30,216 nucleotides of DNA from a virus (IMGVR_UViG_2537561604_000012), one strand, 5' to 3'. Shown: positions 1-7,647, counted from the first letter of the stretch. Numbers and translations: made by a program. The notes: generated by a model from the sequence alone, not told the origin.

Positions 1-296
1 CTATTTATCGGAAGGTTTATCCTGCTGCGGTTTGTTGTTGACCATATCGCACAACATAGAGAGCAGCATTAACCGTACTTTAAAGGGAGAATGACTAAAC
101 ACGCGCATACACCTCTTGAACTCATTCATAAGACCTCCTGACTTGCTAATCCCATCGATCCTTGAGGGATGATTGCATTACATACAGATATAGCACAGGC
201 TATATTATAAAGCATCAACTATCTGCGAAAAACAACAACTTACAGTGTTATCAATAAGTTACGTTGGTTAATGTCTGTGAGTATTCGGCAGTATTT

Positions 297-1337
297 CTAA
301 GCTGTCGCGACATTTTTGCGACATTTTAGGGGGTTAAGTCGCACAGCATCTTCAAGGTGGCTTGGGGCGAAGTGGGCATAACGCATTGTCATGGTTATGT
401 CAGCGTGGCCGAGAATTTTTTGCAAAACCAGAATGTTTCCGCCGTTCATCATAAAGTGGCTGGCAAATGTATGGCGCAGTACATGGGTAAGCTGGCCGGA
501 GGGGAGTTCAATGCCTGCGCGTTCCAGAGCAGAGCGGAAAGCGTTGTAGCAGGGCTTGGGGAACAGAGCGCCTTTTGTTTCAGGTAATTCGGACAGAAGT
601 TCATCATCAAGGGGAATTGTTCTGTTGCGCTTCCCTTTGGTTTTGACGAACGTGACTTTACCCCCGGCGATCTGGGAGCTTTTCAGCGTTGCCGCCTCAT
701 TCCACCTTGCGCCGGTAGCAAGGCAGATTTTGACAACTAATTCTAGGTACTTAACTTTGCTTCGTTTGCATTCCAGTAAAAGCCGATCAATTTCTTCGGT
801 AGTGAGGAAAGCCATTTCGGTTTCATCAGTACGATACTGTCTGACGTTTTCCAGTGGGTTGGGTGCTGACCATTCACCAATCCGTTTCAGTTCATTGAAC
901 ATCGCTAGAAAGTAAGCATGTTCAAGGTTCATAGTTTTCGGGGAAACCTTAGATACTCTGTTGGTGCGGGCATAATGCCCATCCAGCCTTTTAGCGCGGT
1001 AGGCTGTGAACAACTGGGCATTAAATTCTGTGGCCAGCGGGAATCCCATGCATTCCGCCGCCCAGGTCATAGCATCTTTACGCTTTTCGCCATTGCTCAA
1101 AGCTACGCCGTGGCGTTCATACCACATTGTTATCAGATCTATTAAAGTTCGCTTGTCCTTCCCTTCACCCAGCCACGGAGCTGCGTCTACTTTCTGAAGC
1201 GTATGGTTTTCGAATGCCAGGGCTTCCCCTTTCGTGGCAAATTTTTTACGTATACGCTTCCCGTTCTTGCCATTACTGCGGTTGACGGTGTAGAAGTCGG
1301 CGATCCATTCGCCTGTAGGAAGTTTACGAACGCTCAT
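297..1337 (-). CDS. int: Tyrosine site-specific integrase (phage integrase family)
   Basis: 346 aa ORF; C-terminal catalytic region with HVLRHTFAS (R..H-x-x-R box) and MTMRYAHF (catalytic Tyr); start ATG (1335-1337) directly follows repressor stop (TAAAATG), as in 186 cI-int operon. Confidence 0.9.
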   Translation of the reverse strand: MSVRKLPTGEWIADFYTVNRSNGKNGKRIRKKFATKGEALAFENHTLQKVDAAPWLGEGKDKRTLIDLITMWYERHGVALSNGEKRKDAMTWAAECMGFPLATEFNAQLFTAYRAKRLDGHYARTNRVSKVSPKTMNLEHAYFLAMFNELKRIGEWSAPNPLENVRQYRTDETEMAFLTTEEIDRLLLECKRSKVKYLELVVKICLATGARWNEAATLKSSQIAGGKVTFVKTKGKRNRTIPLDDELLSELPETKGALFPKPCYNAFRSALERAGIELPSGQLTHVLRHTFASHFMMNGGNILVLQKILGHADITMTMRYAHFAPSHLEDAVRLNPLKCRKNVATA

Positions 1338-1338
1338 T

Positions 1339-1920
1339 TTATTTTATCGTCAGAACAACGCGGCCTATGATTTTTATGTCGTCAATTCCGCAATCAAATG
1401 CCATACCAACACCGCTAACTCTGACTTTTCGTACCGGAATCCGTGTAAGAGTGCGGACGCTTGTTTTTCCTTCAACTTCAACCAACCAATCATCGTCATA
1501 AACTTCAGAATAAGACTGGTCAACAATGTACTGAATAAGGCCATCCAGAACACAAATCGGTTGTTGCGGTAAGGGCTTGCCAGGCAGGAAGATGACTTTA
1601 TCAAGCATAAGTGTGCCAGCGTCATAGAGTTGGCCATCAACAATCTTGCTGCGCGGCATTTTGAGTATGTCTAATTCATCATCATTAAATTTACGTCCCT
1701 GTCCTGTTGCCAGCCACTCCAGATTAGCGCCTGTTTCGGCTACGCATTTCACGACAATATCTGCCGGGAAAACTCCACGCTTGTAGCGTGAAGAAAGAGA
1801 ACTGGCTGCCATGTCCAGATGTTCCGCGAGCTGTAACTTCTGCGTAAATCCGTAAGCCTCGATCACCCTGTCAAGAATCGGTGTGCTATCTACGTTTAGG
1901 TCGATTTTAAATGTGCTCAT
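1339..1920 (-). CDS. cI: CI-type immunity repressor (186 CI-like, N-terminal HTH)
   Basis: ORF open 1339-1962 (first codon GTG); first ATG giving MSTFKIDLNVDSTPILDRVIEAYGF... is at 1918-1920 (193 aa). N-terminal HTH-like segment ending ...ETGANLEWLATGQG; located between int and divergent early operon. Start choice is by analogy to size of 186 CI; not verified. Confidence 0.7.
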   Translation of the reverse strand: MSTFKIDLNVDSTPILDRVIEAYGFTQKLQLAEHLDMAASSLSSRYKRGVFPADIVVKCVAETGANLEWLATGQGRKFNDDELDILKMPRSKIVDGQLYDAGTLMLDKVIFLPGKPLPQQPICVLDGLIQYIVDQSYSEVYDDDWLVEVEGKTSVRTLTRIPVRKVRVSGVGMAFDCGIDDIKIIGRVVLTIK

Positions 1921-1955
1921 AGCGAATCCATAAGTCTCGATTCGAGAAATTGCCA

Positions 1956-1984
1956 TTGACACTTCTCGAAACGCGAATTAATCT
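1956..1984 (+). promoter_or_regulatory. Candidate sigma70 early lytic promoter (pR-like): -35 TTGACA (1956-1961), 17-nt spacer, -10 TAATCT (1979-1984)
   Basis: Read directly: ttgacacttctcgaaacgcgaattaatct; flanked by inverted repeat TCGAGAA (1942-1948)/TTCTCGA (1963-1969) that could be a repressor operator; ~70 nt upstream of apl/cox-like start. Confidence 0.4.
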
Positions 1985-2008
1985 GGCTCCATATTTCGAA
2001 TGTTGCCT

Positions 2009-2038
2009 TATATAACCCTGTATTGCCGTACAGGTTAA
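2009..2038 (-). promoter_or_regulatory. Candidate leftward promoter (pL-like) facing pR: -35 TTAACC (revcomp of 2033-2038), 18-nt spacer, -10 TATATA (2009-2014)
   Basis: Reverse complement of 2009-2038 reads ttaacc-N18-tatata; would give face-to-face promoter arrangement known for phage 186 switch. Weak -35; inference only. Confidence 0.3.
2017..2034. promoter_or_regulatory. Perfect 18-bp palindrome CCTGTATTGCCGTACAGG (contains CTGT-N8-ACAG) in switch region / apl leader; candidate operator
   Basis: Sequence 2017-2034 is its own reverse complement; lies between putative pL -35 and -10 and 22 nt upstream of apl/cox start. Confidence 0.45.
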
Positions 2039-2055
2039 CTTGTGGAGTTTGCCTT

Positions 2056-2277
2056 ATGCGTCCGAACATTACAATCATCATCCCAGAACCATACCTGCCT
2101 TTAGACGAGTATTGCCGCCGTACTGGCACCAACAAAGAAACCGCCAGGAACCTGATCGAATACGGAAAATTACCTATTAAGCCGAAGGGTAAGCAGAAGA
2201 AAGGCCTGGTCGAAGTCAACATGGCCGCGCTCACTATTCAGGCTTTAAGTGAATGTGACATTTCGCTTAACGCGTAA
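2056..2277 (+). CDS. Cox/Apl-like small DNA-binding regulator (excisionase / lytic-switch regulator)
   Basis: 73 aa from ATG 2056 (RBS GGAG at 2044-2047); first gene of rightward early operon divergent from cI, position and size as P2 cox / 186 apl. ORF track frame extends to 2023 but without RBS. Confidence 0.6.
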   Translation: MRPNITIIIPEPYLPLDEYCRRTGTNKETARNLIEYGKLPIKPKGKQKKGLVEVNMAALTIQALSECDISLNA

Positions 2278-7398: not shown

Positions 7399-7418
7399 TA
7401 CTGTATGTATATCCAGTT
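7399..7418 (+). promoter_or_regulatory. LexA-box-like SOS operator TACTGTATGTATATCCAGTT (CTGT-N8-CCAG) upstream of small ORF
   Basis: Matches LexA consensus TACTGT-(AT)4-ACAGTA at left half-site perfectly and right half with one core mismatch (CCAG vs ACAG); AT-rich centre; 22 nt upstream of ATG 7441. Confidence 0.5.
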
Positions 7419-7440: not shown

Positions 7441-7647
7441 ATGGATCTTTTGGAGGCGTCGGCACAGCTGGAACGCATTGAGTTATTGGCCAAAATTGCC
7501 CATGTTTACGAAAGTAACCAGAGAGAAAAAACAATCGCTTTGGCCTGGATTGGAGAGCTTGCGGGAGAGGTTCGCGAAATGGTTAAAAAGGAAGGGCAAC
7601 GCCCCCAGAATGGGGGCATTTCAGGCGGCGGGAGTCGCTTTCAGTAG
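7441..7647 (+). CDS. Small hypothetical protein (68 aa) downstream of SOS-box-like site; possible Tum-type antirepressor analogue
   Basis: ATG 7441 preceded by GGGGG; function inferred only from position (186 has LexA-controlled tum after gene A). 3' end overlaps convergent ogr-like gene and hairpin 7601-7617. Confidence 0.4.
   Translation: MDLLEASAQLERIELLAKIAHVYESNQREKTIALAWIGELAGEVREMVKKEGQRPQNGGISGGGSRFQ
7601..7617 (-). terminator. GC-rich hairpin GCCCCCA-gaa-TGGGGGC just downstream of ogr-like stop; candidate terminator of P-Q-ogr transcript
   Basis: 7-bp perfect stem; on minus strand followed within ~12 nt by TTTTT (plus 7584-7588 aaaaa). U-tract not adjacent so moderate. Confidence 0.35.

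Follow-up and report, generated by a model that had tools for sequence, protein, structure and literature searches.

A 186-type lysis-lysogeny switch of an E. coli prophage with predicted immunity-specific operators and a covarying hairpin among its probable Cox/Apl-type boxes

The window analysed here is the whole stretch of 30,216 nucleotides from the viral record IMGVR_UViG_2537561604_000012, given as one strand from 5′ to 3′. Its left part contains the following genes:

1-129, minus strand: mntS, at the left end of the window
297-1337, minus strand: tyrosine integrase gene (int), also towards the left end
1339-1920, minus strand: immunity repressor gene cI, 193 aa, with 45% identity to 186 CI and the Pfam domains PF07022 and PF16452
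2056-2277, plus strand: cox/apl-like gene, 73 aa, first in the rightward operon, matching PHROG 575
2308-2811: cII homologue, downstream of the cox-like gene

The gap of 135 bp between cI and the apl/cox-like gene, described in an earlier note made from the DNA alone, is confirmed at exactly 1921-2055. The layout around it is that of the 186 type: cI (with CI_repr HTH and CI_C domains) and cox/apl are divergent, int lies past cI, and cII lies past apl, with a fil homologue, more early genes and replication gene A farther downstream. CII of 186 and the cII product share 44% identity. The 73-aa Cox-like protein matched PHROG 575, 'Cox-like excisionase and repressor', with an E value of 1.5e-27, and a BLASTP comparison of it with 186 Apl returned no similarity. 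The DNA of the switch is 100% identical in an E. coli chromosome (strain Combat13F7, NZ_CP019245), where the genes are annotated alike and cI is labelled 'phage repressor protein CI'. The CI and CII homology, the Cox-like match and the matching annotation in the E. coli record identify 1921-2055 as the lysis-lysogeny switch of an E. coli prophage that is P2-like and of the 186 type (int-cI / cox-cII-fil).

The Combat13F7 chromosome departs from the window past ~3.4 kb and has host genes at the expected far end of the prophage, so this strain probably carries a prophage remnant or another mosaic. A search of the phage database found no record with a match of at least 85% to the cI-operator DNA, and the Cox type encoded here occurs there in only a few phages, all uncharacterised. 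From the description given by Nilsson and Haggard-Ljungquist (PMC3448106), the Apl-type protein may belong to their 'group 4' Apl.

The att core is probably a shared GCTATATTATA at 196-206, which lies between mntS and mntR at the left end of the window. Tandem GCGACATTTT repeats, probable Int arm-type sites, occur at the 3′ end of int (306-326) and, in a 98% relative (locus L373, 6540-6562), close to the opposite end of the prophage. The attR end is absent from the window, and no 12-mer in common with the window's left end was found in it.

Neither of the two repeats in the switch is significant on the window alone, and since they do not go beyond chance there, related loci were used as evidence. 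The comparison set consisted of 29 bacterial-genome loci found through CI alignment and several hundred viral-contig loci found through three Cox variants and a DNA pattern. In the half of the switch next to cI, the following features were assigned:

1934-1948, unstranded: O1, probable CI operator GTCTCGATTCGAGAA, a palindrome ending 7 bp upstream of the -35 hexamer and positioned like the 186 CI sites over pR
1956-1961, plus strand: pR -35 hexamer TTGACA, with TTGACA or a near variant at the same place in relatives
1963-1977, unstranded: O2, probable CI operator TTCTCGAAACGCGAA, occupying the pR spacer, with the same layout in heteroimmune relatives
1979-1984, plus strand: pR -10 hexamer TAATCT, with a predicted start near 1991 and TAnnnT kept in relatives

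The rightward promoter that the earlier note had called near-consensus, TTGACA-N17-TAATCT, is present with its 17-nt spacer. The description holds for the -35 hexamer but not for the -10 hexamer, which matches TATAAT at only three of six positions; TAACCT, TAGTCT, TAGAGT, TATTCT and TAGCCT stand in its place in relatives. A generic consensus scan of 1700-2400 on both strands reported no promoter, because -10 hexamers of this kind are too weak for the rule of the scan. The TCGAGAA and TTCTCGA strings said to bracket the promoter do flank the -35 hexamer, at 1942-1948 and 1963-1969. They are better read as the right half of O1 and the left half of O2, however, because each belongs to a separate 15-bp palindrome. 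The core of O1 (1935-1947) is a perfect palindrome of 13 bp, and the centres of O1 and O2 are 29 bp apart.

Loci with the same CI N-terminus keep both O1 and O2, while the 7 bp that separate O1 from the -35 hexamer (1949-1955) vary freely among them, with ATTGCCA, ATTAAAA and ATTGTGA among the variants. Where the CI N-terminus is of another type, both positions are again occupied by palindromes, 28-29 bp apart but of other sequence, such as TTAGA-N5-TCTAA, TGTAGAT-N3-ATCTACA, TTCGATTAAGTCGAA and CGCAAAATGCG. Retention within a CI type and replacement at the same positions in other types argue that O1 and O2 are probably immunity-specific CI operators. As far as can be read from the DNA, the lytic promoter is thus covered by immunity-specific palindromes, which is one of the marks of the family.

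When the window was searched for more O1/O2-like sequences that could serve as distal CI sites like FL and FR of 186, and for FR-like copies, only matches at chance level were obtained. Several other sequences in this part of the operon were observed along the way. TTTCGA at 1994-1999 resembles one O1/O2 half-site; it shares bases with the first Cox box described below, and its distance from the centre of O2 is ~30 bp. The same spot in heteroimmune relatives looks like a half-site of their own CI (TTAGAT is one example), a hint that a third CI site of half strength may compete with Cox there. The cox stop codon is overlapped by TAATCC-N7-GGATTA (2275-2293), at the place of the FR CI site and the pE promoter in 186; this palindrome occurs only once in the window and does not go with the immunity type. 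Its centre reads TAGGAT on the minus strand, with TAnnnT kept in relatives, and is likely to be the pE -10 hexamer. The start of cII (2308-2336) contains ATGTTTG ... TAAACAT, which resembles the region of the 186 CII site.

The half of the switch next to cox contains a second group of features:

1998-2007, plus strand: probable Cox/Apl-type operator box 1, GAATGTTGCC, with direct-repeat boxes in relatives that follow the Cox HTH type
2017-2034, unstranded: conserved stem-loop CCTGTA / TTGCCG / TACAGG, covarying across relatives
2018-2027: Cox box 2, formed by the left arm and loop of the hairpin, the last copy of the box series

The inverted repeat at 2017-2034, CCTGTATTGCCGTACAGG, had been reported as a perfect 18-bp palindrome. 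It is not perfect: its reverse complement is CCTGTACGGCAATACAGG, and two 6-bp arms (2017-2022 and 2029-2034) surround an asymmetric 6-nt centre, TTGCCG. The reported CTGT-N8-ACAG core is there, at 2018-2033, as the only exact match in the window. Comparison with relatives showed that the arms change and the centre stays. Their arm variants include CCGATA / TTGCCG / TATCGG, GTGGATA / TTGGCG / TATCCAC, GTTGAATG / TTGCTG / CATTCAAC, CTGAACT / TTGCCG / AGTTCAG, TGAGCG / TTGCCG / CGCTCA and GCCTATA / TTGACG / TATAGGC, and further ones exist.

Covariation was evaluated on 78 distinct sequences in an alignment made regardless of pairing. A MAFFT alignment of the whole upstream regions had split the right arm by gaps, and the sequences were re-anchored on the loop columns before pairs were counted. 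Standard pairs filled 86.3% of the cells versus 59.5% in shuffles, and the covariation score was 0.779 versus 0.291, a value that none of 500 shuffles reached. Sliding the partner by 1-3 columns as a control gave scores of 0.19 at most. All seven pairs have changed on both sides. A stem of at least five consecutive base pairs is kept in 157 of 198 distinct related upstream regions, with 22 different 5-bp core arm pairs, and the distance from the first loop base to the cox ATG is 31-36 nt throughout, so that the register is fixed within ~5 nt. The excess of covariation over shuffles and the retention of the stem in most distinct relatives show that the pairing is under selection. Compensatory changes keep the helix, as is generally the case for structured RNA, a pattern that by itself names neither the molecule (DNA or RNA) nor the strand.

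Other properties of the hairpin bear on strand and molecule. Single non-Watson-Crick pairs in the core read as G.U on the plus strand in seven lineages versus A.C in one and so favour the plus strand, while departures at pair 6 (four A.C versus one G.U) favour the minus strand. The folding energies are -7.9 kcal/mol for the plus and -7.3 kcal/mol for the minus strand. The minimum-energy fold of the 70-nt pR leader is without the hairpin, with competing folds and z = -0.03. At loop position 6, a G stands in 93 of the 111 distinct hairpins, and the upstream boxes have T or C there.

An Rfam 15 search with E values up to 10 returned no relevant family, the one match being at chance level (E = 2.6) and to an unrelated family, and no second, nut-like copy of the hairpin was found in the window. 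Two mechanistic roles were considered and rejected. Intrinsic termination would call for a T run after either arm, and there is none, nor is there any terminator-like site in 1700-2400. As for a hairpin-dependent pause, the downstream bases, compared by eye with the G-10/Y-1/G+1 consensus, gave no consistent match. Two loci with truncated cox reading frames of 25 and 30 codons still keep the hairpin, and three Morganella-type loci have a different one, ACATCGA-(A/G)CGCAA-TCGATGT, at about the same place.

The centre of the hairpin recurs outside it. In relatives, direct-repeat boxes of the form (G/A)AT(A/G)TTG(C/G)C occur 10 or 20 bp before the hairpin, two to four per locus and with up to four 10-bp copies in tandem, for example AACATTGCCC ATTATTGCCC ATTATTGCCC TGTATTGCCG; the window has two boxes only, 20 bp apart. 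The box sequence goes with the Cox type: TTGCC is found with NKETAR(N/K)LIEY, TTGGC with S(K/R)STAENLISY and (A/G)TGTTG with ARDM(I/V)RD. Within the loop or box, the fourth base follows the Cox HTH, being C with NKETAR and G with S(K/R)STAE. According to PMC7498355, the RDF operators of P2-like phages likewise consist of direct repeats, spaced by one turn and placed between the promoters, and 186 Apl needs three adjacent sites in vitro; that the window has two boxes speaks against the assignment. An array of this kind would comprise three or more direct repeats spaced 10-11 bp apart, at att as well as between the promoters. Because the loop matches the boxes, the boxes track the Cox type and Apl/Cox operators are direct repeats, the conserved hairpin loop is most simply read as a Cox operator box, on top of which the arms would obey a separate constraint. 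In the 60 nt before the cox ATG of four loci with distant Cox types, three or four clean 10-bp repeats (CAAATAGATA, AGTATTGAGT) are present and the hairpin is missing, so a switch of this kind can do without it.

Box-like sequences elsewhere were also recorded. A scan of the whole window for TATTGCC found no cluster near attL. An exact copy of the TATTGCC box at 2110-2116 lies inside cox, in the codons for E-Y-C-R, and may be there by chance, since the protein motif DEYCRR is conserved. The attR of the 98% relative has two ATTGCA boxes only, 12 bp apart; the box evidence there is weak, and they may be Cox sites in the far arm.

The convergent leftward promoter is predicted at the start of cox:

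2044-2047, plus strand: Shine-Dalgarno GGAG of the cox-like gene, in the nearly invariant column block GGAGTTTGCC
2046-2051, minus strand: predicted pL -10 hexamer CAAACT (complement of AGTTTG), at the 186 pL offset, with a predicted start near 2039 and CAnAnT in relatives
2069-2074, minus strand: predicted pL -35 hexamer TTGTAA (complement of TTACAA, cox codons 5-7), at the 186 pL offset

Relative to the apl ATG, the annotated pL of 186 has its -10 hexamer at -10 to -5 and its -35 hexamer (TTGCGA) at +13 to +18. The offsets of CAAACT and TTGTAA from the cox-like ATG are exactly the same, and their spacer is 17 bp. Cox codons 5-6 (2068-2073) read ATT ACA in all 60 distinct sequences listed, whereas the third positions of codons 2, 3, 4, 7, 8 and 9 vary among them; this comparison used viral loci found by protein match alone. 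Such invariance at synonymous sites indicates selection on the DNA itself. A convergent leftward promoter is therefore very probably present, most likely at the position homologous to the 186 pL, and the 186-like face-to-face geometry proposed in the earlier note finds support, with a good pR in a switch of the 186 type. We infer pR and pL starts near 1991 and 2039, ~48 bp apart. P2-like switches, as described in PMC7498355, have face-to-face promoters 40-60 bp apart with direct repeats of the RDF in between, and the predicted distance falls within this range.

The earlier note had placed the palindrome inside the leftward promoter, as the 17-18 nt spacer between TTAACC (complement of 2033-2038) and TTATAT or TATATA. 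These hexamers do exist in the window, and some relatives have AATAAT-like or TATAAG-like sequences to the left of the hairpin. The -10 candidates lack A2 or T6, however, and the -35 candidate lies inside the covarying arm and its flank, which change freely among relatives, while the site homologous to the 186 pL is kept in every one of them; the promoter scan was silent on both strands. The 186 offsets and the invariant cox codons 5-6 point to another place for pL, and a promoter spanning the palindrome is thus improbable. A role of the palindrome as a CI operator, for instance as a third or distal site like FL or FR, fits the facts that 186 CI uses two kinds of half-site as well as distant palindromic sites and that the palindrome sits inside the switch. 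It is very hard to reconcile with the sequences: the arms do not resemble the O1/O2 half-sites of the TTCTCGA type, the CCTGTA arms are shared by loci of at least five CI N-terminal types, whose pR operators differ, and the TTAGA-N5-TCTAA operator type is found with both CCTGTA and CCGATA arms. With arms and CI operator types uncoupled in this way, we give the CI-operator reading very little credence. The remaining suggestion was a LexA-like site, through which DNA damage would act directly on the switch. CTGT-N8-ACAG at 2018-2033 speaks for it, as does a rank of sixth among 30,197 positions when, as the earlier note had advised, the window was scored for LexA sites, here by the heterology index (HI). 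The score itself, 13.2, is marginal and falls outside the 0.7-12.8 spanned in leave-one-out scoring by all 25 reference boxes. The five central bases are all non-consensus, the centre TTGCCG is not A/T-rich, and the single match compares with 0.28 expected by chance, with at least one in 26% of shuffles. Moreover, CTGT/ACAG occurs in the CCTGTA arm variant only, and orthologous hairpins (with CCGATA, GTGGATA, TGAATG and TGAACT arms, among others) score 30-49, which shows that conservation bears on the pairing and not on the LexA motif. Elsewhere in the window, at 7399-7418 and immediately past replication gene A, stands TACTGTATGTATATCCAGTT, a strong LexA box with an index of 2.2. It is followed by an ORF of 68 aa (7441-7647; PHROG 698, function unknown) whose product aligns at 32% identity with the N-terminus of 186 Tum, over residues 5-42, and is without the DinI-like C-terminal part of Tum. 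This combination of a strong box and a Tum-like ORF after gene A constitutes a predicted SOS input of the 186 kind, at the position of the 186 p95-tum module, and a direct LexA operator in the switch is exceedingly improbable.

The main rival to a folded hairpin is a protein site at the level of DNA, in which the inverted repeat would consist of two head-to-head Cox/Apl half-boxes, or would be some other dimer site, and no hairpin would form. In its favour, the left arm and loop copy the direct-repeat box, and in the ARDM(I/V)RD Cox clade the right arm is the inverted 5′ half of the box (TTGAATG ... CATTCAA). Arm families are also confined in part to particular Cox clades, which makes it conceivable that a protein touches some inner bases of the arms, and the recognition of DNA by Apl-type proteins is loose according to PMC7498355. 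Against this, one identical Cox HTH (TGTNKETARNLIEY) is found with six different core arms, among which complementarity is always kept, G.T intermediates included; the recognition helix of Cox thus does not specify the arms. The arms track neither the CI type nor the CII type. Conservation of an asymmetric centre with variable arms is the reverse of a dimer operator, and the known RDF operators (PMC7498355) are direct and not inverted repeats. On balance this DNA-level reading appears unlikely, though it keeps a real share of the probability.

The explanation that we prefer, and in which our confidence is moderate when it is taken as a whole, combines CI at O1 and O2, a 186-like pL, Cox boxes and a hairpin acting as folded RNA. 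Start sites, the assignment of sites to proteins and the RNA role of the hairpin are the parts that we infer. Briefly, CI would bind the two 15-bp palindromes (consensus TTCTCGA-N-TCGAGAA), O1 adjoining the -35 hexamer and O2 filling the spacer, and would thereby shut off pR; this repression would relieve interference on pL. The -10 hexamer of pL would overlap the ribosome-binding region of cox, with its -35 hexamer in cox codons 5-7, and the two promoters would fire at each other across ~48 bp. The Cox-like protein would bind the (G/A)AT(A/G)TTGCC boxes between the two starts and repress pL. The hairpin would arise from the last Cox box together with a complement of the box's 5′ flank, giving a 6-bp stem and a 6-nt loop. 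Such a structure is judged too small for a cruciform. It would rather act as folded RNA in one or both convergent transcripts, while binding of Cox to the DNA would maintain its loop sequence. Within the 5′ leader of apl/cox the hairpin would stand ~10 nt before the cox Shine-Dalgarno sequence, and in the leftward transcript ~5 nt past the predicted pL start, so that it could affect the stability, translation or mutual pairing of both RNAs.

Because the hairpin lies in the ~48 nt predicted to be transcribed from both pR and pL, both transcripts would carry complementary loops. A more specific proposal is that the hairpin works at the RNA level in the two transcripts, either through kissing of the complementary 6-nt loops or through an effect on leader stability or cox translation, with the DNA doubling as the last Cox box; we regard this version as speculative and rather unlikely. 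If true, it would add a post-transcriptional layer to a switch that has so far been explained by repressors and transcriptional interference only. The convergent-promoter switch of 186 and P2 is a textbook model of transcriptional interference and of excisionase-repressor proteins, and a base-paired element in an RDF operator array, preserved through compensatory changes in a large clade of enterobacterial prophages, suggests that this branch has a control feature that the 186 model lacks. Should the hairpin be a mere by-product of the arrangement of Cox boxes, the region would be one more heteroimmune switch of the 186 type. In either case, a common immunity group in E. coli, Salmonella, Enterobacter, Cronobacter and their relatives gains testable operator and promoter assignments. 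A limited literature search, which took in parts of PMC7498355 and PMC3448106, found no description of a covarying hairpin in a Cox/Apl operator array, and a search on antitermination in the 186 early operon gave nothing usable.

Some likeness to known RNA elements can be traced. The boxB element of lambda nut is also a short covarying stem with a conserved loop, a few tens of nucleotides past the start of an early promoter, a likeness that serves as a lead only; here there is one copy in the window, no match to Rfam, and a hexaloop instead of a GNRA-like pentaloop. Kissing-loop antisense systems (CopA/CopT, RNA I/RNA II and RNA-IN/OUT) are without a counterpart of their YUNR motif in either loop here, and the likeness to them, judged from predicted starts, consists of a G+C-rich 6-nt loop in a stretch transcribed from both strands and of two RNAs with exactly complementary loops.

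Among phage switches, Pe-Pc of P2 and W-phi shares the convergent promoters, the small Cox protein that is both excisionase and repressor, and Cox operators in which direct repeats follow one another at about one helical turn, over the promoters or between them (PMC7498355, PMC3448106). It differs in that P2 has a small C repressor with direct-repeat operators and no cII, and the limited literature search brought up no conserved inverted repeat in the Cox box array. The closest counterpart is the switch of 186 (Eganvirus, Peduoviridae), which is built from CI, Apl and CII. In contrast to 186, the Cox-like protein here is without detectable sequence similarity to Apl, the starts are ~48 bp apart by prediction rather than 62 bp, and two clear CI operators 29 bp apart take the place of three within 57 bp. 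FL and FR lie ~300 bp on either side of pR in 186, and sites like them were not found in this window; the Tum-like protein is shorter, at 68 aa without the DinI-like part; and no hairpin of this kind occurs among the seven Apl sites of 186. The two systems are alike in gene order (int-cI / apl-cII-fil), in CI and CII proteins that are 45% and 44% identical, in palindromic CI sites over pR with one between the -35 and -10 hexamers, in identical offsets of both pL hexamers from the ATG of the first lytic gene, and in a LexA box and Tum-like gene just past replication gene A. Taken together, the layout is that of the 186 switch, most of the family characters compared are present, and the switch described here is a new heteroimmune member of the 186 type.
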